From positions 15,136 to 79,135 of the IMG/VR virus record IMGVR_UViG_2595698618_000001: a stretch of DNA of 64,000 bases; one strand, written 5' to 3'. This document shows, piece after piece, positions 1,927 to 61,965 of the stretch. The translations under genes and the position numbers were made by a program. A model generated the notes under the pieces. That model made no database searches. It saw nothing but the letters and a program-made list of their open reading frames with translations, and was not told the origin of the DNA. The stretch comes from a virus. Its lineage: Duplodnaviria; Heunggongvirae; Uroviricota; Caudoviricetes. Each line of letters opens with the position of its first letter. The first letter of the stretch is position 1.

Positions 1927-4878
1927 ATGGCTAAGAATCTTAGTGTCCTTATTGAAGGGGTCGAGACTGTCTCCCGTAAGATGGACGATATTGAGGATTC
2001 CGTTCAGGAAGTTAATCGTTCACTTCAGGGTATGTCAGCGGCCTTTAGCGAAGCGTCTGGCGCGTCTGCGGCTTTTGACGGAGCGGCACATAGTGCTTCT
2101 GAAGCGGCGGATGACGTTGCTCGAAATACGCGACAAGCCGCTCGCGGCATCGACAAAATGGGAGAAGATGCAGTTGATGCGGCGGCGCAACTCGGATTCC
2201 TGTCTACGGTGATGGATAGGACTTCGGTTAGTGCTGGTGCGCTTTCCGTTAACGTTGGTGCTTTCACGATTGCGCTTCGTCAACTTCACACGCAACTTCC
2301 CCTACTCCTGACAACCTTCGGTTCGCTTGGAGCCGTGGCTGGTGGTTTGACTGCCGCTATTGTTGCACTTACAGGAGCGATGGCTGGCCTTTTAGCGGGA
2401 GGTGCTATCGCTTGGTCTAACCAACTCCAAGAGAATTTCGCCGGGATTACGAGTCACGCTGAGGCGATGGAAGCCATTATGGGTGGCTTTGGCGACTTGA
2501 TGGAAGAAGTATTCGCACCAGTATCGGGAGCGGAGAATATCGAACTCTTAATTAATACCATCGAGCGGTTTGCCGAATTAGCGAACCGTTCACTTCAGGC
2601 GATTGATGCGATGCGTGATTCGTTCGTCGCTTTCTTCGAGCCTATTAATATGGCGATTGATTCTAATTTCAACCGTCTTGCTGGTTCGATGCAGGCGTTG
2701 TTCGACTTTACGCCCGGTGGTGAAATTGAGACTGCTGGTGAGGCATTACAGCGATTAGTGCTGTTTGCAATTAATCGCTTGCCTGATATGATTGACTTCT
2801 TCAGCGAGATTACGGCTAAACTCTCTGGACCGCTCTCTGGTCTAATGAAGTCGTTCTTGGCACTAACTCGTGCCCTCGTGCGATTCGCAGAGAGTGCCGC
2901 TGAAGGTGTCTTGCCTATCATCGAAGCACTCGTTAATTCCCTTACTGGATTCTTCCAAGTAATTAACGAACTCGATGCTGGCTTTATCGCAAGTGCGGCA
3001 CAGGCTCTCGTCCTCGTAGGAGTTGGCTTTAAGTTGCTCGGTGTATTCGACAGTCTTCTCGACGTTGTTGGTGCATTCGGTGGCCTCGTAGATGACGTTA
3101 TTCTTAAGTCCTCGTCTCTTGGTAATGCAATGCTACGTCTCTCTGTTAAGGGTGAGGGCTTCTTCGAGGATAGATTCCACGGGCTGACGAGATTCGGTAA
3201 CGCGCTCTTGTCGCAGATTCCAATTCTTAATGCATATGGTGAGAGCCTCGAAGATGCGATGGACCCTGATGCGGATATGGACTTCGCTGATGCTGTCAAT
3301 ATGCATAAGCAGGCGATGGCTGGTTCTCTCCCGACCCTTGACGATTTCCGTGAGAAAATTCGAGGATTGAGGGGAGGTAGCGAACTCGGTGAAATGCTTG
3401 GCGAAGGCGCTGAGTTTGACCCATCGCTACGCGGCAGTAAGATGCGTAGTCCAGCGGGTACGTCTATGCCGATGCCTGATATTTTGTCAGGCGGTGGCCC
3501 GAGCATCCGAGAACGTCTTTCTGGCGCTCGTGAAAGTATGCGGCAGTTTGGAAAGACTGCTATTCAATCTGGTAAGAGTTTCGCAATGGGCTTTGGACAG
3601 TTTGCAAAGGGTGGGATTGTAACATTCCACTCTGCGCTTGCTGGTATGCTCCATCCGGCTCTGTTTAAGACTGAAGGCTTTACGAGCATTGTTCGAGGTG
3701 GTATTGATGATATGGCCGCTGGTTTGCGGCAGATGGGTCTTGGAATTATTCCTCAAGTTGTTGGTAACATTTGGGGAATGATTACGAGTCTCTGGACTTC
3801 CGTGACTGCGTTCGTCGCTAACGAGATTGCGGCCATCAAGTTGGCTTTCGCACAGAAGGGTGTGATGGCTGGCTTTATGCAGATGGCGGCTTCCGCTTGG
3901 GCGGCAGTCACAGGACTTGTTGCTTCTGCGGCGAGTATGATAGTTGCCGCAGTTTCGGCTATTAGCCTTAACGCCGCACTCGGTGGACTTCCACTCTTAC
4001 TCGGTGCTATTGTTACTGGCGCGGCTCTACTTGTTGGAGCAATCGGTAATATGGATGGCATCGTTGGAGGTGCGAAATCCTCGTTCGAAGGCTTGAAGAA
4101 CTTTGCCATTGCACTTGGTCAGGCGCTCTTGAACTTCCTCGTCCCATACTTCAACGTACTCGTGGACGTGTTTGAAATGCTGATGGCTCCTGTTTTCGCA
4201 ATCAGCGACGGACTTCGGTTAGTCATTGATACGGTTCTTGAAGCCGCTGGTGCTGGTGGTGACGGCGCTTCGATGATGCAGAAGTTTGCAAACGTAATGT
4301 CGTTCCTTGGTGAAGTGGTGTCCTTCTTGAGTCCTGTGTTTACGGTACTCGGGGACATTCTTTACGAAGCGTTTATCATTCCGTTCAAGATTATTGCAAC
4401 GGTTCTTGGCGTAGTTATTGGACTCGTGGCTGACTTGATTGGTTGGCTTGCGAAGATGGCTACGGAAACTGGCTTCGTTGATGCATTGCTCTCTGCATTC
4501 GACATTCTGATGCGAGGGCTGGACGCGGCGATTCAACTATTCGTTGACCTCGTGAACGGAGCAATCAACGCCGCTAACCAGATTCCCGGTGTTAACATTG
4601 GGAAGATTGGTCAAGGCGGTGGTGGCGCTGGTGGTCGATTCGAAGACTTGAAGACTACCAAGGCTGAAGTTGAGGAGAACCTTGAACGTGACTCGCAGGA
4701 GAATCAGAATCAAACTGCTGACACGACTCCTGCTCAGTTCAACTTCGAGGAGAACGTTGAGAATAACACGACAGTTAACGCTCGTCCTGAAGATAACCAG
4801 CGTATCAAGCAGATGGTTAAAGATGCGATGGAGGAGGCTAACACCTTCCGTCGTAAGAAGGACGCTTACAGCGGGTGA
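1927..4878 (+). CDS. Tail tape measure protein
   Basis: 983 aa, Ala/Gly-rich amphipathic helices, position after the chaperones. Confidence 0.9.
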   Translation: MAKNLSVLIEGVETVSRKMDDIEDSVQEVNRSLQGMSAAFSEASGASAAFDGAAHSASEAADDVARNTRQAARGIDKMGEDAVDAAAQLGFLSTVMDRTSVSAGALSVNVGAFTIALRQLHTQLPLLLTTFGSLGAVAGGLTAAIVALTGAMAGLLAGGAIAWSNQLQENFAGITSHAEAMEAIMGGFGDLMEEVFAPVSGAENIELLINTIERFAELANRSLQAIDAMRDSFVAFFEPINMAIDSNFNRLAGSMQALFDFTPGGEIETAGEALQRLVLFAINRLPDMIDFFSEITAKLSGPLSGLMKSFLALTRALVRFAESAAEGVLPIIEALVNSLTGFFQVINELDAGFIASAAQALVLVGVGFKLLGVFDSLLDVVGAFGGLVDDVILKSSSLGNAMLRLSVKGEGFFEDRFHGLTRFGNALLSQIPILNAYGESLEDAMDPDADMDFADAVNMHKQAMAGSLPTLDDFREKIRGLRGGSELGEMLGEGAEFDPSLRGSKMRSPAGTSMPMPDILSGGGPSIRERLSGARESMRQFGKTAIQSGKSFAMGFGQFAKGGIVTFHSALAGMLHPALFKTEGFTSIVRGGIDDMAAGLRQMGLGIIPQVVGNIWGMITSLWTSVTAFVANEIAAIKLAFAQKGVMAGFMQMAASAWAAVTGLVASAASMIVAAVSAISLNAALGGLPLLLGAIVTGAALLVGAIGNMDGIVGGAKSSFEGLKNFAIALGQALLNFLVPYFNVLVDVFEMLMAPVFAISDGLRLVIDTVLEAAGAGGDGASMMQKFANVMSFLGEVVSFLSPVFTVLGDILYEAFIIPFKIIATVLGVVIGLVADLIGWLAKMATETGFVDALLSAFDILMRGLDAAIQLFVDLVNGAINAANQIPGVNIGKIGQGGGGAGGRFEDLKTTKAEVEENLERDSQENQNQTADTTPAQFNFEENVENNTTVNARPEDNQRIKQMVKDAMEEANTFRRKKDAYSG

Positions 4879-9297: not shown

Positions 9298-10464
9298 ATG
9301 GTTGACTTATCTCGAATTATTGATAAGTTTCCTGAGATTATTCCTCGGGAGAGTAATAGCACTATTGCTCGTTACATCGAGGCGTTTCAGGAAGATACCG
9401 ATGGTCTTGCTGATGACTTAGACGATATTAGAGATAGTCGTTTCATCGACCAAGCAACGGGTGCTGACTTAGACCGTATTGGTCGAATGTATGGTCCTCT
9501 TGGTAGCCGTGCTGGACGAGATGACCAAGAATATCGAACATACCTAAAGTCTCTTGTTCCAGTATTCCAGTACCGAGGTACAGTTCCCGGTATCAGAGCG
9601 GCTGTTGCGGCAGGGCTTGGTATTGAAGATGGTATTAATGGTGGCGGTCCTGCTGACTTAGAAGTTTACGAACACTATAATGACGACCCTGCTAATCAAG
9701 AAGAATATCTTGAATATACCATCATTCTTGACGAGTGGACACCCCACCGAGGTTCTACTATCGAGAATCTTGCGGAATTGTCAGACGCTTCTGTGTCGAG
9801 GTTGCGTAAGACGACTTACAACTTGCCTGAAGAAGAAGCAGGTGTTACTGATGCAGTTAATGTAACTGAAGGTCAAGTTATTACTGATGCGATGAGTGCA
9901 TCTGATGCGAGTTTCGTCAATCCTAATTTGACGACTGTGCCAGATGCCGCGTCTGTTGATGAGCAGGTTTTCGTCAATCCTAATTTGACGACGGTTGCCG
10001 ACGAGTCTGCGGCGTCGGAGGATGTTGTTAAGACTGAGCGTGATGCTGGTAAGGCTCGTTGGGACCAACAGCGTGTGGACTGGGACTTCTTCGAGTGGGC
10101 TGTTATTGAAGAACTTCTACGTACTCACGCTGAGGATGTATCGGTTGATGAGCAGGTTTTCGTCAATCCTAATTTGACGACGGTTGCGGGAGGTACTGGT
10201 GGTAGTTCTGATTCGGTTGCTACTAATCCAAACCTCACGACAACTTCTGACTCTGCATTTGCGGATGATGCGAATGCGGTTGACCCGAACCTTACGACGG
10301 TTGGGGATGATGCGAGTGCTGATGACGCTACAGCCGTTAATCCGAATACTACAACTGTAGCCGAGGATTCGACTGTCACGGAGAATGTCACGACTACGAC
10401 GACTCAAGTGGCGTGGGATTCCGGCAGTTGGGACTCGATGAATTGGGCTGTAGAACACAACTGA
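9298..10464 (+). CDS. Baseplate wedge/tail protein (GpI-like) with ~20-aa (V/T)NPNLTTV repeats
   Basis: ATGADLDRIGRMYG...RDDQEYRTYL; C-terminal half is repetitive. Confidence 0.75.
   Translation: MVDLSRIIDKFPEIIPRESNSTIARYIEAFQEDTDGLADDLDDIRDSRFIDQATGADLDRIGRMYGPLGSRAGRDDQEYRTYLKSLVPVFQYRGTVPGIRAAVAAGLGIEDGINGGGPADLEVYEHYNDDPANQEEYLEYTIILDEWTPHRGSTIENLAELSDASVSRLRKTTYNLPEEEAGVTDAVNVTEGQVITDAMSASDASFVNPNLTTVPDAASVDEQVFVNPNLTTVADESAASEDVVKTERDAGKARWDQQRVDWDFFEWAVIEELLRTHAEDVSVDEQVFVNPNLTTVAGGTGGSSDSVATNPNLTTTSDSAFADDANAVDPNLTTVGDDASADDATAVNPNTTTVAEDSTVTENVTTTTTQVAWDSGSWDSMNWAVEHN
9912..10350 (+). repeat. Imperfect coding repeats (NPNLTT units) with an exact ~39-nt duplication
   Basis: TGAGCAGGTTTTCGTCAATCCTAATTTGACGACGGTTGC occurs at ~9960 and ~10149. 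Confidence 0.85.
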
Positions 10465-34090: not shown

Positions 34091-34193
34091 TGGACCGCCC
34101 CGGATTCGAACCGGGAGTTCCTTGCTAATTTGGAGCAGAAGCCGTAACTTCAACTCTTGCAAAGCAAGTGTCTTGCCATTAGACCAGCGGCCC
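34091..34193 (-). tRNA. trnA: tRNA-Ala(TGC) with 31-nt BHB intron (34127..34157)
   Basis: G3:U70; intron at 37/38 with central helix UUUG/CAAA and 3-nt bulges CAA and UUA. Confidence 0.9.
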
Positions 34194-35136: not shown

Positions 35137-35139
35137 AAG

Positions 35140-35212
35140 TCTCCCGAGTAGGATTCGAACCTACTGCAACACGCTCTACAGGCGTGTACCCTTACCAGCG
35201 GGTCTTCGAGAG
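35140..35212 (-). tRNA. trnY: tRNA-Tyr(GTA), archaeal type
   Basis: cacgc-ctGTAga-gcgtg; C1:G72, short variable loop. Confidence 0.9.
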
Positions 35213-50613: not shown

Positions 50614-50934
50614 TCATTTGTGGCTAATTGTTTTGTAGTATTTTTCGATACTTAGTTGGGCTTCTGAAACGTCGTTGTCGTTGTAGAAGTCACAGATTTC
50701 TATCCAGTCGTTTTTCGCGTGGAAGTTTCTGTGGTATCGTGAGCGAAGTAAAAGAAGGTTCGCCGGGCGATTATCCCACGGTATTGTATTCCTGTGGTGA
50801 ACGTTCCATACACGTCCATTGAATACGTCGTGTGGGTCTTCTTCGACACAGGCGAGTAGTCGATGTAGTTTGACAGAATCTTCTCCGTCTGTGACTACTT
50901 CGTATCCGCCTACTGTCTTGAAGTTGATGCCCAT
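50614..50934 (-). CDS. HNH endonuclease (HNH_3-like)
   Basis: KLHRLLA...VHHRN..PWDNRPANL...H. Confidence 0.8.
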   Translation of the reverse strand: MGINFKTVGGYEVVTDGEDSVKLHRLLACVEEDPHDVFNGRVWNVHHRNTIPWDNRPANLLLLRSRYHRNFHAKNDWIEICDFYNDNDVSEAQLSIEKYYKTISHK

Positions 50935-52463
50935 TACCGCGCCGGTTCTACTGATTCAATCTCTTGAATCATCCCATCGACGTTCTCGACCTTCTCGATG
51001 AAGTCGAGGACCTGTTCCGACCAGCCGCTCATATTGTAAACGTCGTGAGCGCCTTCTGGTGTTACGAGGTCGCCGTAGTGTTGTAGGTCGATGAGGTATA
51101 GGCTTGCGTTAGGGTTCTCCGCCTTATACGCATCCCATTCGTCCTTGAAGGACGTGTTGGTTCTCCAAGTGGAGTCGTTCCAGAGTTGCATATCGGTGAA
51201 CACGATGATACGCTCGTAAGAGCGGTCTTCGTTGCGTAGTCCACGGAGGACTTTCCAACCGTTAGTCGAGCCACCGACTCCGACACTCTGCATCTTCTCC
51301 GCGTTGGTGACGAGAGGGTTTCTCGGGTCGGCGTTAATTTCAGCGAAGTCGCTTGCGAAAACGCCAACATCAGATTGCCGTTCGAGCATCATTGCACCGA
51401 ACAGCGTTGCAATCTCCATACATTGCAGTTCCGAGTCTCCCGATACAGAAGACCGCATCGAACCACTCACGTCTACTGCGGTGAACGTATTCTCGAACAC
51501 GTCGGGTAGGTTCTCCGTAGCGACTTCCATCGCATTTTCGAGGAACTCCAGCGCGTTTTTATCGTTAGGCGTGTCTCTGCTCTGCTTGACAGCCTTGTAC
51601 GCTTGGTAGAACCGGAATGGGTACATCTGACTGTTTCGAACCCATTCGTCGGTTACGTCACCAAAGATTTCCTCACCGGAGAGTCCGGCGTCGAGCATAT
51701 TGCGAACGTTGCGAACCCGTGCGAAGATAGGCATCGAGTAGCCATCCTCATTTTCTTCGAGTTGTTCGCGCCAAACCTCAGCCTGACTCCGGCCCTCTTT
51801 ACCGGCTTCAGACATTTCGTTCTCCCACGTATCGGACTGCTTGAGCGGGTCTACGTCAGGATGGGAGTCCAGTTCTCCGAGAGCAATCTGCTCAAAAATT
51901 GCATCTCGCTCCTCATCCCGAGGACGCGGGTGAACGAGGTTCAGCAAGTCGCGGTACTGCCATTCTCTCGAAGGGCGGTCCCACTTTGCAAACTGATACT
52001 CGTTGAAATTGTGGAGAGCATCCTCGATTCCTTTCTTCAGCGGATTCGGGATGGACTTGCCGTACAGGGAAACCTGCATCGCAAGAACTTCCAAGGGTTC
52101 ATCTGCACGCTGAATAACTCCCTCAGCATAACTACGAACGTAACCCTTGGTCCGGTCATCGTTGGCCGACAGTACGAGCAACAGTTGAGGGACTTGCCGA
52201 AGATTCTCAGACTGTCGCGCATACTTAGCCAACTTCAGGACAAATTCTGGATTTACATCCGCCACTCGGTCGAACTCAGTCCGAACGTCATCTAACGAAT
52301 CCTCAGCCGACTCGTAATAAGAGTCTTCGAGGAGGTTCGTCAGCACGTTCTTCGTGAGAGCAACTTCGGGCGAGTCAGGCGAATACGCTTCGCCACCCTC
52401 ATAGTTGTCCTTCTCAGTTCGTTCTGCGACTGTCTCTTTCGTGTCGTTGTAGTTGATTCCCAT
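50934..52463 (-). CDS. rsr: Ro60/TROVE-domain ribonucleoprotein with C-terminal vWA
   Basis: NYEGGEAY; PEFVLKLAKYARQ..NLR; YQFAKW; DLLNLVHP; MYPFRFYQAY; MIDAS DVSGSM; FTDMQ; SGWSE. Confidence 0.9.
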   Translation of the reverse strand: MGINYNDTKETVAERTEKDNYEGGEAYSPDSPEVALTKNVLTNLLEDSYYESAEDSLDDVRTEFDRVADVNPEFVLKLAKYARQSENLRQVPQLLLVLSANDDRTKGYVRSYAEGVIQRADEPLEVLAMQVSLYGKSIPNPLKKGIEDALHNFNEYQFAKWDRPSREWQYRDLLNLVHPRPRDEERDAIFEQIALGELDSHPDVDPLKQSDTWENEMSEAGKEGRSQAEVWREQLEENEDGYSMPIFARVRNVRNMLDAGLSGEEIFGDVTDEWVRNSQMYPFRFYQAYKAVKQSRDTPNDKNALEFLENAMEVATENLPDVFENTFTAVDVSGSMRSSVSGDSELQCMEIATLFGAMMLERQSDVGVFASDFAEINADPRNPLVTNAEKMQSVGVGGSTNGWKVLRGLRNEDRSYERIIVFTDMQLWNDSTWRTNTSFKDEWDAYKAENPNASLYLIDLQHYGDLVTPEGAHDVYNMSGWSEQVLDFIEKVENVDGMIQEIESVEPAR

Positions 52464-55304: not shown

Positions 55305-55436
55305 TAGCCCCGGTAGGATTCGAACCTACAATCTCTGCTTCCAGATAGCGAAGTAACGCTTCCAATCGCTCCACAAAACGTGGCTGAAATCTCAGAAGCG
55401 ACGTAATAGCGCCTTGAACCATTCGGCCACGGGGCT
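55305..55436 (-). tRNA. tRNA-Gln(CTG)-like gene with 58-nt insertion in the anticodon stem (55350..55407)
   Basis: A1:U72 acceptor AGCCCCG/CGGGGCT; removing the insertion gives ctgct-atCTGga-agcag. Confidence 0.6.
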
Positions 55437-56589: not shown

Positions 56590-57981
56590 CTATTCTGCCT
56601 TGATGGAGAGGAACGGCTTGACTCTATCGACCACTTCGACCGATTCTCCGAGCGCGGCTTCGATTTGTTCAGCAGGCTTGTACGCACCGGGAATCTCGTC
56701 CATCGGCTTCTTCGACATATACACGTCGCCAATCTGTTCCTCGAAATCGTCAGCGTCGAACTTGTCGTGAGCCGCAGTACGCGACATAGCCCGACCAGCA
56801 CCGTGTGCAGACGAGTTATTCCACGAGTCCTTCCCACGCCCTCGGCAGAGGAGCGTTCCGTAAGACATATTCAGAGGCACGACAAGGCGCTCTCCATCGT
56901 GGGCACGGCACGCGCCCTTACGCACAGTCGCGTCCTGAAAGTCGATGTAGTTGTGGACGGACTCAACCTCATCCTCCCACCAGACGGGGACTTCCTCGTT
57001 AGCCTCGCCATCTTCGCCCAAGATAGAACGAACTGCATCGAGGACTGCGACAGCCATCTGCTTGCGCGAGACGCTGGCGTAAGTCTGAGCAAACACCATA
57101 TCCTTGATGTAGCCGTGCGCTTCCTCTCCTTCGAGGTAGTCCAAGTCCGTGTTGCGACCGGATTCAGCGTTCTTCGTCTCCTGAATGAATTGAGACAGTT
57201 CGTTGAACTTCTCCTGAATTGCCTCTCCCTCGAAGTCTGCGCGAATCTTATCCGACTTCGGCTTCCAGTCTTCACCGAGATATGGCTCGATGGAATCAGG
57301 AATCTCCGTCTCAAGCGCACGCTCGTTCATCCTATCGGTGGCTACATCCTGCCAATACTGGGCAATCTGAGCGCCGATGCCACGAGAGCCGGAGTGAATA
57401 ATCACCCAAACGTCGCCCGTCTGCTCCGAGCGACCAAACTCGATGAAGTGGTTGCCTCCACCGAGTGTACCGACGCTGTTGATAGCGCGGCCTTGGTCGT
57501 ACCCTACGCGCTTGCACACGTTCTTGAAGTAGTCGAGGCCGTACACGTCTTCGGGGTCTTCCTCGATAGCGAACTGCGTCTGCTCCGTGAACTCGTCCAG
57601 TTTGTAGACACACTCACGCCACGGGAAGTCGTTGCCCATATGGAAGCCGTTTCTTCCGTGAACGTCGAATCCCATTGGAATACGCTCGCGCACAGCAGAG
57701 TCGAGTTCCTCAAGCGAATCGAAGTCAACGTCCCCGAGTTTGATAGCGAACATTCCGCAACCAATGTCCACGCCAATCGTGTTTGGAACAATCCGATTCT
57801 TGACAGGCATCGTGAAACCGATAACCGCTCCTGCTCCCCAATGGGTGTCAGGCATAATCGCAACGTCGCCCTCACCCTCGAACGCAGGGTGGTCCACCAT
57901 CTCCTGAATCTGGTCTTTAGCCTCCGACTCGACGGAATCAATCTTTACGTCAGCCGTGTTGTAATCGCCTTCAATCTTCAT
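56590..57981 (-). CDS. rtcB: RtcB 3'-phosphate/5'-OH RNA ligase
   Basis: MPDTH.G.G; IGVDIGCGM; GTLGGGNHFIE; HSGSRG; HNY; RKGA; HGAGRAMSR; DEIPGAYKP; start MKIEG at 57981. Confidence 0.97.
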   Translation of the reverse strand: MKIEGDYNTADVKIDSVESEAKDQIQEMVDHPAFEGEGDVAIMPDTHWGAGAVIGFTMPVKNRIVPNTIGVDIGCGMFAIKLGDVDFDSLEELDSAVRERIPMGFDVHGRNGFHMGNDFPWRECVYKLDEFTEQTQFAIEEDPEDVYGLDYFKNVCKRVGYDQGRAINSVGTLGGGNHFIEFGRSEQTGDVWVIIHSGSRGIGAQIAQYWQDVATDRMNERALETEIPDSIEPYLGEDWKPKSDKIRADFEGEAIQEKFNELSQFIQETKNAESGRNTDLDYLEGEEAHGYIKDMVFAQTYASVSRKQMAVAVLDAVRSILGEDGEANEEVPVWWEDEVESVHNYIDFQDATVRKGACRAHDGERLVVPLNMSYGTLLCRGRGKDSWNNSSAHGAGRAMSRTAAHDKFDADDFEEQIGDVYMSKKPMDEIPGAYKPAEQIEAALGESVEVVDRVKPFLSIKAE

Positions 57982-58099
57982 ACTCGAAAGAAGGGGCCAC
58001 AACGTTATAAACGTTGCGGTTAAGCCGAACTCAATCGGAACCAACGGGTTCCGACAGTAACGCTACTCGTTACTGCTAACCGGCGGTTGAGGTTGAAAA

Positions 58100-59401: not shown

Positions 59402-59869
59402 TTACGTCGTGTCGTTGAATGTGATTCCATTTGTAGCGTTCCCTCCTTCAACTCCGTTGTCGTCTCTGCCTTGCCAGAGCGCCTCTCGTGCGAGTCTGTT
59501 GGCAGTCTTGTTCTGTTCAGTCGTACTACGCTCCTCCCATTCTAACTCCCATTCCTCGAACTCGAATAACTTCCTGAGAGCGAGTCTCCGGTACTCAAAC
59601 CACTTGTCATCGTACATATCGTCAGGGTCACGGATTTTGTCAACGAGCGGTTGACAATCGACTACAACGCGAATCGTATCATCATAAGCCGTGACTTGCT
59701 CTTGGGCAACTTCGAGTCCTTGCATCAAACCGTGCCACTCCGCCTCCATTGAGGTGTAGTCTCCCTCGACGTAGTGCTTCCCTTCGATTCGGCCTCCCGT
59801 CTTTAAGTTGATAACGTACCCGAGGCCGAAAACTCCTTCTCCTTTAGAGGCGTCCGTGTATAGTTTCAT
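59402..59869 (-). CDS. RNase HI-like nuclease
   Basis: LYTDAS; EAEWHGL..GLE; VDCQPLV; NKTANRLAREA (last catalytic Asp appears as Asn). Confidence 0.8.
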   Translation of the reverse strand: MKLYTDASKGEGVFGLGYVINLKTGGRIEGKHYVEGDYTSMEAEWHGLMQGLEVAQEQVTAYDDTIRVVVDCQPLVDKIRDPDDMYDDKWFEYRRLALRKLFEFEEWELEWEERSTTEQNKTANRLAREALWQGRDDNGVEGGNATNGITFNDTT

Positions 59870-60101: not shown

Positions 60102-60443
60102 TCATCCGAATACCACCTCTGGATGTTGCTCGTATTCGACTACGTGAACGTGATAGTGATTGGGGACGTGAGCCATAATTTCGCGTAGCGTATGCTCTCC
60201 GCAGATTGCTGACACGATTTCCTTAATATGCTCGCGTTCCTCGTCAGTAGGTTCTGTCGTGTGTCGCTTGAGGACGACCATAGGTTCGCCGTTGGGTTTA
60301 TTAATAAGTAGGCAAGTGTCGTCCTCGTGGAACCAGCGCGTCTTCTTGTCAGGTTTGGGACAGAACGCGCATTGTGTTTCCTCGTTGGGTAGATTCTCTC
60401 TTGCTGGCATTCGCGCCGAGCCGGGGATATTTCTCCTTGGCAT
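60102..60443 (-). CDS. HIT-like nucleotide hydrolase
   Basis: CAFC...; VVLKRH; VPNHYHVHV. Confidence 0.65.
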   Translation of the reverse strand: MPRRNIPGSARMPARENLPNEETQCAFCPKPDKKTRWFHEDDTCLLINKPNGEPMVVLKRHTTEPTDEEREHIKEIVSAICGEHTLREIMAHVPNHYHVHVVEYEQHPEVVFG

Positions 60444-60615
60444 ACCCTAATGTAGAGCATACATATACTTAAGGCTATCGGATTTTGGTTTCCGAAAAAC
60501 GAAAGGGAGAAAGGGAGAGTGGAGCGAGGGCAAGCACGTCACACGAGCAAAGTGAGGCTACCGGATGCCGCTTTGTTGCACCAGACCGAGACTGGAATAA
60601 ATTGGCTGTTAATTC

Positions 60616-60716
60616 AACTACGAGGGAGCCACCCAAGGAAGGACTCGAACCTTCATTCTTTAGAGTTACAGTCTAATGTTGTACCTTGAAGTAACGGTCA
60701 GCCTTCGTCTCGCGTT
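60616..60716 (-). ncRNA. YrlA-like Y RNA candidate #3 with tRNA-like domain
   Basis: 5' stem strand GCGAGACGAAGG; UUACUUCAA; arm UUAGA-cuGUAac-UCUAA; T-arm GAAGG-UUCGAGU-CCUUC; own promoter at ~60735-60755. Confidence 0.65.
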
Positions 60717-60766
60717 CAAGTGTACCTATGCACTCCTACTACTTAAATCTTTCGATTTACATTTCG

Positions 60767-61965
60767 TTAATAGTTCTTCACATTATCGTAAGAATACCCA
60801 CCAAGCACGAGCATAAATCCGATTAAGGCATCATCAAAATCAATCCTCGGGTGGTCGTATGCTTCAGCCAAGACGCGCTTATAATAATCGTGCATTTCGC
60901 TTGAAGAATACTGTGTCAAACCCCTCGGACCACTCCAACCCATCGCCTTCTTAAACGACCTATCCGCCTTCTTAAAGGCACGTAAGTAATCGAAAAACTT
61001 GTCATCGTCATACTCGATAGGATTCTCACGAGCGAAATCGAGGAGCGAACTACTCATCGTCCAACACCACCGTCGCTCTACTCGGGACATACACATCCTC
61101 GATATGCTCCACCTCTGCCAGCAGGCGACGACGCGCTTCTCCGAGAGCCTCTGCATTCGTCCGACCCTCACTTGGCGACAGGCTGAACCCATCGACCATT
61201 ACTGACTTGAGGACCGCACCCGAATCACCACGCTCGTTGAAGACAAACGTGTAGTGCGAGTTATCACGAATCGTCTCGATGTAATGTTGACTATCCTCCG
61301 AGTCGTAGTTCGTCACAGTCACAGACGCCCCTCCTGATAATCCCTGTGCGCCCGCTCAAGCGATTCCTCAGCACGATTCGGGAAGGTAGACTGATAAATC
61401 AGCCCAACCTCGAAATCCGAAACTTCAAGAATAAACTTCTCCCACTCGGAAGGAAACGTCTCCTTATTCCGAGATAGACGAACGACAAGCGTAACCGCAA
61501 CGTCCGTCATTCGATTTAGTTCATTCTGACTACGCACATCAGCGTACTCGTCTTCATCCACGACTTCCGAAATTCGTGCTTGCGTCTTCTGGTACAGTTC
61601 CTCAGCCTCGGCTTCGGTCAGGCTGGTTCGCTCAACTAACTCCGGCAGTAATTCACTCATACTTCCACCTACGTGCTATCCTTACTTAACTGTTTCCATT
61701 GTTCGTCTACAATCGCAAGTTGGGCGACTATATAAAGCGTTCGATAATCATCCTTCCGCCACGACTCAATCATCATATCCTTATACTCATCCCACTCGCA
61801 GAATGGTCTATTAGCGATTGTGGATTCATCCTGCCCGTGTGGATTCCAGAAGTCTGCATCTTCCGACACACCGAAAATGCGCTCCTTATATCGAGACGGA
61901 AGCGGCCATTCCCGAAGCGTAACGTGTTCCATTCTGCTCAGGCCCATTCTGGAACCTCGTACCAC
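60767..61965 (-). other. Small hypothetical ORFs (~60767.., 61050..61322, 61319..61660, 61669..)
   Basis: Acidic ORFs; no family recognised. Confidence 0.4.

Follow-up and report, generated by a model that had tools for sequence, protein, structure and literature searches.

A conserved, tRNA-like RNA gene of an archaeal tailed virus and its predicted link to Ro60

Which kind of RNA is encoded by a viral gene that has the anticodon-like arm and T arm of a tRNA but lacks an acceptor stem: a tRNA, the remains of one, or a member of another RNA class? The question is raised by a locus in the window analysed here, i.e. the 64,000 nucleotides corresponding to bases 15136-79135 of a 143,855-bp virus record. 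An earlier note had described the locus as a tRNA-mimicking RNA of 101 nt (60616-60716), resembling the bacterial YrlA RNAs and equipped with its own promoter. Judged by its conservation, covariation and promoter, the locus is a real, conserved, structured, non-coding RNA gene of an archaeal tailed virus. Its extent, closing helix and family relationship differ from the earlier description.

Transcription unit and gene neighbourhood

Between 20 and 64 kb the genes of the window lie on the minus strand. The window translations include very acidic proteins and ARAGORN finds 35 tRNA genes in the virus; together with the promoter motif these features fit the haloarchaeal tailed virus HGTV-1. The tRNA-like RNA gene is located on the minus strand inside a 323-nt gap between the open reading frames 60767-61192 and 60102-60443 (Table 1). 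A promoter of its own, as proposed before, is present upstream, although it is of the archaeal and not of the bacterial type: its BRE/TATA motif recurs on the minus strand of the window (28 matches versus 3.4 expected) and also precedes tRNA clusters. The predicted RNA start at about 60716 is 31 nt away from the TATA box, counted from its first T, and the register of BRE/TATA relative to GAGACGA is unchanged in all the homologues whose upstream DNA was examined (10 of 11). At the opposite end the T5 run 60499-60495 is likely an archaeal terminator; in the alignments the tail motif is conserved in the homologues and followed by U runs. The RNA would accordingly extend from about 60716 to 60495 and measure some 222 nt, so that the 101 nt given earlier fall short and leave out the conserved partner of the 5' block at 60563-60541. 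The ATG of the next gene (60443) is located 31 nt from a TATA box of its own (CTTAAGTA), a distance that indicates a leaderless mRNA. Its own promoter, the T5 run and the separate TATA box of the next gene identify the RNA as an independent transcription unit in this genome.

The 3' tail preceding the putative terminator reads CACUCCCUCUCCCUUU (60500-60539, minus strand), with homologous tails in five related contigs (L005, L009, L016, L076 and L077). This tail resembles the anti-Shine-Dalgarno end of 16S rRNA, not its complement.

Table 1. Positions of the RNA gene, its predicted elements and selected genes of the same region (window coordinates)
Feature	Positions	Strand	Basis or remark
Archaeal promoter: BRE CGAAA (60754-60750) and TATA box TTTAAGTA (60747-60740)	60740-60754	-	
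P1 5' strand (AACGCGAG-A-CGAAGGCU-G-ACCG), with bulged A 60708 and bulged G 60699	60695-60716	-	Block invariant in homologues
UUAC (YUAY-like), then D-arm-like segment UACUUCAAGGUACAAC	60678-60694	-	Rfam tRNA alignment
Anticodon-like arm UUAGA-CUGUAAC-UCUAA: 5-bp stem, 7-nt loop CUGUAAC	60660-60676	-	
T arm GAAGG-UUCGAGU-CCUUC	60638-60654	-	Perfect; covarying
Hairpin directly after the T arm (C..GGG-UGGCU-CCC..G), weak in the virus	60621-60637	-	Alignment reading
3' stem strand of the earlier note (CUCGUAGUU)	60616-60624	-	Not conserved; probably not the real partner
P1 3' strand (CCGGUAGCCUCACUUUGCUCGUGUG)	60540-60564	-	RNAduplex, covariation, RNAalifold
Pyrimidine-rich 3' tail (..CUCCACUCUCCCUUUCUCCCUUUCG) ending in the T5 run 60499-60495	60495-60539	-	Tail motif kept, U runs after it
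TATA box CTTAAGTA of the next gene	60466-60473	-	Sequence reading
RNase H-like (RVT_3) gene	59402-59869	-	Directly after the RNA in 10 of 11 relatives
RtcB RNA ligase gene, same module	56590-58044	-	tblastn, 59-66% identity to the genes of related contigs
Ro60/Rsr gene, TROVE and vWA domains	50934-52463	-	PF05731, 40.7 bits; proposed protein partner

The rsr gene of the virus lies on the same strand as the RNA, 8.2 kb downstream; its Ro60/Rsr homologues, which are abundant in haloarchaea and in metagenomes of hypersaline sites, carry PF05731 and PF25045, and the counterparts of the RtcB gene in L004, L005, L077 and L078 are annotated with PF01139. In the virus itself two small open reading frames separate the RNA from the RNase H-like gene. 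The contigs with the closest Ro60 proteins share a gene module comprising RNase H-like, HD, RtcB, Ro60, MazG and RlaP genes, sometimes joined by eRF1-like and PspA genes and, farther along, by Thy1 and ribonucleotide reductase. The real tRNA-Tyr of the virus is encoded at 35139-35212. A separate 103-nt stretch (34091-34193, minus strand) gives a full-length Rfam tRNA match of 51.6 bits without an ARAGORN call, and is probably the intron-bearing tRNA mentioned in the re-analysis of HGTV-1.

Structure of the RNA and its conservation

The arms follow one another in the order D-like, anticodon-like, T and hairpin, in a core with a GC content of 0.38. Both the T arm and the anticodon-like arm with GUA had been recognised earlier and are found at the places given in Table 1. 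The D region (UACUUCAAGGUACAAC) retains the tRNA positions U8, A9, A14, G18, G19 and A21. Its stem is degenerate, with two non-pairs; a candidate 3-bp D stem is paired in 80% of cases, displays no covariation and is absent from the RNAalifold prediction. At the anticodon position GUA is found in 6 homologues, UGA in 4 and AUC in 1, and despite this variation U33 and A37 of the loop are constant. The hairpin that directly follows the T arm is clean in the homologues, where 5-6 bp can be read by eye (CUGUC/GACAG, CUGAC/GUCAG, CGUGUG/CACACG, CGGAGG/CCUCCG); it could imitate a loop-closed acceptor stem. No strand pair flanking the core can form a 7-bp acceptor stem. The Rfam tRNA model (RF00005) aligns with positions 8-63 of its 71 only, at 35.1 bits against a gathering score of 29, and ARAGORN makes no tRNA call at the locus. 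The broken D stem and the missing acceptor are thus as the earlier note had them. With the acceptor end absent and the anticodon triplet not kept, a working tRNA is rejected on structural grounds, and the RNA is predicted not to be charged.

Immediately downstream of the 5' block, UACUUCAA (60693-60686) is shared, as claimed before, with two other elements of the window (52543-52536 and 55491-55484), and in addition with 30632-30625, all three being intergenic; the window holds 11 copies versus 1.8 expected. The same octamer was considered as a facing plus-strand promoter, its reverse complement being the TATA-like TTGAAGTA. This reading was rejected, since the corresponding NUNCUUC forms of the cellular and viral relatives are not TATA-like.

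The helix that closes the RNA is not the one previously drawn. The proposed stem AAC-GCGAG/CUCGU-A-GUU (60716-60709 with 60624-60616) can be drawn in this sequence, but its 3' strand is absent from the homologues. The conserved partner of the 5' block is found about 150 nt downstream, where 60563-60541 pair with 60715-60695 in a bulged helix of about 20 bp, here called P1. This helix begins with CGAG, a bulged A and CGA opposite UUG. An internal loop with four nucleotides in its 3' strand comes next, and after five more pairs the second bulge, a G, precedes ACCG paired with CGGU. Its duplex energy (RNAduplex) is -24.5 kcal/mol in the virus and ranges from -22 to -26 kcal/mol at the homologous place across all ten full-length sequences. 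The first 22 nt of the RNA are nearly invariant. Within the 5' strand of P1, GACGAAGG at 60709-60702 (RNA positions 8-15) fits the bacterial Y RNA motif GNCGAAN0-1G (PMC4201824), in agreement with the earlier description; the homologues read GACGAA (4) or GACGAG (6) in the alignment.

The proposed structure is supported by covariation. In the alignment of ten sequences, 30 pairs (P1, anticodon-like arm, T arm and candidate 3-bp D stem) were counted: 94.3% of the cells hold standard pairs versus 81.9% in shuffles, and 14 pairs are changed on both sides versus 6.5, although several of the ten sequences are close relatives, so that fewer independent events underlie the covariation than these counts suggest. 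None of 500 shuffles matched the observed pairing or the observed both-side changes, and sliding the partners by 1-3 columns as a control left 31-48% of the cells paired. With the same reservation, compensatory pairs make up 6 of 17 in P1 (5 of 9 in its inner part), all five in the anticodon-like arm and three of five in the T arm, where every cell is paired. Independently, RNAalifold predicts from the same alignment exactly P1, the anticodon-like arm and the T arm. Further compensatory variants occur in metagenome contigs at 60653/60639 (A-U to G-C in one contig), 60676/60660, 60675/60661 and 60673/60663, and no variant was seen in the 5' block of the metagenome contigs that span it. Whether CGAA is paired cannot be read from covariation, as neither these nucleotides nor their partners vary. 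The folding energy of a 121-nt and of a 277-nt piece is no better than that of shuffles (z +0.84 and +1.30).

Homologues were searched for with a covariance model of the core on related contigs and with a 5'-block pattern on metagenome contigs; the contigs that carry them stem from hypersaline metagenomes. Ten full-length sequences are available, i.e. the window and nine contigs (L005, L008, L009, L012, L016, L076, L077, L078 and L080). The full-length homologues score 80-137 bits with the core model, except for L016 with 52.6 bits, and short or cut copies are found in L010 and L079. Four more metagenome runs match only 60478-60731 and have flanks that differ from the window; the metagenome contig matches end at 60478-60537. 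Matches confined to this stretch between dissimilar flanks indicate that the RNA gene is better conserved than its neighbours. The phage collection gave no DNA match to the locus, a close Rsr was not found in cultured haloviruses, and IMG/VR yielded only a distant bacterial-type locus, its pattern searches returning no homologue. Matches of the pattern in L011 and L018 lie inside coding DNA and were rejected as homologues.

Two of the related contigs deserve separate mention. The closest relative (L004, with a 70% identical Ro60) carries a shortened RNA at the syntenic place (1130-1225), which has the handle and UACUUCAA without an anticodon or T arm, and a T-arm-bearing unit in the leader of rsr (9850-9985); modules seem to have been swapped among paralogues. 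In L008 the called start of a gene at 2999 overlaps the 3' half of the RNA, and the RNase H-like homology begins at 3083 (2999-3083); the start at 2999 is probably miscalled.

Relationship to Y RNAs and to Ro60

Bacterial Y RNAs are marked by GNCGAAN0-1G near the 5' end, followed by YUAY (PMC4201824). The YrlA RNAs (RF02553), known from Salmonella, Mycobacterium and mycobacteriophages, share with the viral RNA this 5' motif, a helix strand and YUAY (in the virus GACGAAGG..UUAC), a T arm whose loop is of the tRNA type and which is immediately followed by a hairpin, the strand of rsr, and the fact of being phage-encoded as well. They differ in being circularly permuted (T arm, acceptor stem-loop, D arm) and in having no anticodon arm. 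With the YrlA model, whose gathering score is 69, the viral RNA reaches 15.4 bits (E 3.4), and the model has no match in the whole viral genome. Given this score and the non-permuted order of the arms, membership in YrlA, to which the earlier note likened the RNA, is rejected on the evidence of model and topology.

Closer in topology is Yrn1 of Deinococcus radiodurans, with D-loop features, a 5-bp anticodon-like arm and a T arm in this order (PMC4201824). The viral RNA has the same order of arms, and in both RNAs the 5' and 3' ends pair as a handle, which is the Ro-binding part in Yrn1. Yrn1 is bound by Rsr and encoded near rsr (Chen et al. 2013 and 2014). It is bacterial, its anticodon-like loop has 6 nt versus 7 nt in the viral RNA, and a relation in sequence is not detectable. 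Yrn1 tethers Rsr to PNPase, which is not known from haloarchaea.

A virus-encoded pair of Ro60 and RNA has been described from the Thermus phage phiLo, whose Ro60 is the closest solved structure to the viral Ro60 (E 1e-33). The phage RNAs bound by the phiLo protein had been selected by two features, a CGAA motif located in a bulge and a 5'-3' stem flanking this bulge (PMC12135203), and binding of Yrl1 and Yrl2 was demonstrated by gel shift (PMC12135203; PDB 9KOP, 9L5Y). The bulged CGAA arrangement is alike in both viruses. The differences are that phiLo is a bacterial phage, that its RNAs lie directly upstream of the gene, and that no tRNA-like module has been described for them.

In the virus and its relatives the link to Ro60 is one of co-occurrence: rsr is found on the same strand, 6-10 kb downstream of the RNA, in all ten contigs long enough to test, including L009 and L012, which were found by the 5' block of the RNA alone. 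The distance (8.2 kb in the virus, 6-10 kb in relatives) exceeds the 4-kb same-strand criterion of Chen et al. 2014, and the tightest neighbour of the RNA is the RNase H-like gene, not rsr.

Motifs of the same type are also present next to cellular rsr genes. Of 48 haloarchaeal genomes, 46 have the combined motif GNCGAR..NUNCUUC in the 1 kb preceding rsr, where its density is 2.0 per kb versus 0.07 per kb elsewhere. The haloarchaeal sequences form arrays of tRNA-like units upstream of rsr, each with GNCGAR, a helix strand, UUNCUUC and often a T arm. These units and the viral elements at 52.5k, 55.4k and 30.6k resemble the viral RNA in this succession of motifs, in D-loop-type nucleotides, in the frequent T arm, in being closed by 5'/3' pairing and in their link to rsr; they differ in their length of 60-90 nt and in the lack of an anticodon-like arm. 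In the rsr-adjacent units of haloarchaea the inner helix reads as an acceptor stem lengthened by the outer helix. By analogy P1 may be understood as an extended, closed acceptor stem, which fits this layout. A covariance model built from 34 rsr-adjacent cellular units finds only the T arm of the viral RNA (10.1 bits, E 0.44; 15.2 bits for the best homologue), and its best match in the window is 55310-55378 (35.3 bits, E 3e-9). Kinship with the cellular family is thus supported by short motifs and architecture and not by a significant model score. Only viral contigs yielded the form with an anticodon-like arm. Supposed cellular counterparts, i.e. matches of the core model at haloarchaeal rsr loci with 20-34 bits, are ordinary tRNA genes, such as L045:1100-1172 with a 7-bp acceptor stem and a CUC anticodon.

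Several further elements were recorded in these regions. The 132-nt 'tRNA' match at 55305-55436 (minus strand, 45.7 bits) is composite, with 55378-55310 as its 3' part, and the element is conserved in L004 (5540-5665) and L008 (5523-5649). It is preceded by a hairpin (55510-55445, minus strand) whose inner stem compensates (GAGAACGC/GCGUUCUC versus AGGAAGGC/GCCUUCUU). In most haloarchaea (L019-L070) rsr has ahead of it, about 100-600 nt upstream, one to four tRNA-like units and then a complete gene of the tRNA-Arg(UCG) type, some copies of which carry an intron-like insertion, and tRNA genes are also located about 1.3 kb upstream of rsr. Halogranum rubrum, which belongs to the host genus, has a unit before its own rsr (L027:2268-2353) whose AUACUUCAAUGG is identical to that of the viral elements; in most other genera UUCCUUCG or UUGCUUCG takes its place. 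A bacterial-type phage contig with a 27% identical Ro60 (L003) displays the canonical YrlA-type order just upstream of rsr (9836-9925). Its region 9730-9925 contains GUUACUUCG and, behind the 5' strand, one more hairpin, which has UCCUUCAAU; both elements score below the Rfam gathering threshold.

Competing explanations and biological meaning

The explanation that we favour, with moderate confidence, is that the RNA of about 222 nt is a Y-RNA-type gene with a tRNA-like module and the predicted partner of the viral Ro60. A rather unlikely but substantial rival is a tRNA-like RNA that works independently of Ro60, either as a decoy or sponge whose targets are host defence nucleases that cut tRNAs, or enzymes that process or modify them, or as a partner of the RNase H-like and HD proteins encoded just downstream. 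It is favoured by the gene order, in which the RNase H-like gene comes right after the RNA in 10 of 11 relatives, by the U33 and A37 retained in the anticodon-like loop and by the failure of the cellular rsr-adjacent model to find the viral RNA; the heavy viral outlay on tRNAs and RtcB would likewise fit a conflict over tRNA integrity. However, such an RNA leaves unexplained both the invariant 5' block with the Y RNA motif in a bulged closing helix and the perfect co-occurrence with rsr (10 of 10), and in the virus two other genes intervene before the RNase H-like gene. Quite improbable is a long structured 5' leader acting in cis on the downstream gene. Several relatives have only 10-60 nt between the tail and the next start codon, and L008 has no room for a separate TATA box, which speaks for a leader. 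Against it, the virus has the T5 run and a TATA box of the next gene at leaderless distance, the gene next to its RNA is not the one found there in the relatives, and in L077 and L078 the tail is separated from the start codon by TATA-like boxes.

Two readings that keep the locus among the tRNAs are hardly credible. A decaying tRNA-Tyr pseudogene would account for a partial Rfam tRNA match above the gathering score (35.1 bits). The re-analysis of HGTV-1 lists three putative pseudogenes, and the lowest tRNA GC content given there, 38.6%, is near the 0.38 of the core (PMC13532342). Yet the stems are maintained by compensatory changes across ten homologues, the most conserved part is the 5' block, which is foreign to tRNAs, the promoter spacing is constant, and there is no special likeness to the tRNA-Tyr of the virus at 35139-35212. 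On these same grounds (covarying stems, invariant 5' block, constant promoter spacing) the earlier view of a tRNA mimic that does not decay neutrally in relatives is upheld. With ordinary viral tRNAs and pseudogenes the RNA has the T arm, the geometry of the anticodon arm and the D-loop nucleotides in common; it lacks their acceptor stem and conserved anticodon, and what it has in addition is the 5' block, the closing helix (about 20 bp) and an extended 3' part. No more plausible is the precursor of a working tRNA that matures by archaeal-type processing of a split, permuted or intron-bearing gene. The host is an archaeon, such genes exist in archaea, and the virus has at least one intron-bearing tRNA; but no two strands form a 7-bp acceptor with a free 3' end, the bulge-helix-bulge (3-4-3) motif is absent from the closing helix, and the anticodon differs among the homologues.

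If the RNA is indeed a Y-RNA-type partner of Ro60, the bulged P1 with its CGAA motif would, by analogy with the Y RNAs of bacteria and phages, serve as the handle that grips the outer face of the viral Ro60/Rsr ring. The tRNA-like module could then recruit a tRNA-handling enzyme, be it the RtcB ligase, an RlaP-type nucleotidyltransferase or an enzyme of the host, or it could alternatively protect the RNA. The complex of Ro60 and RNA might serve the quality control or repair of the 35 tRNAs of the virus and of host RNAs during infection. A tentative extension is an archaeal Ro60/Y-RNA partnership built on a near-complete, non-permuted tRNA mimic, Yrn1-like and independent of YrlA, that may tether Ro60 to RtcB or RlaP and so guard viral tRNAs against host RNA-cutting defences.

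Our literature search found no paper that links Y RNAs to haloarchaea or haloarchaeal viruses. Y RNAs with tRNA-like modules are already known from bacteria and their phages; if the favoured explanation is true, tRNA mimicry on a Ro60 handle evolved once more, this time in a third setting and with its parts arranged in another topology. The locus would offer a small and concrete pair of RNA and protein whose virus and host recently became a laboratory system (PMC13532342), and its likely annotation as a tRNA pseudogene would be corrected. Together with the RtcB, RlaP, RNase H-like and eRF1-like genes, the RNA would delimit a conserved viral RNA-repair module.
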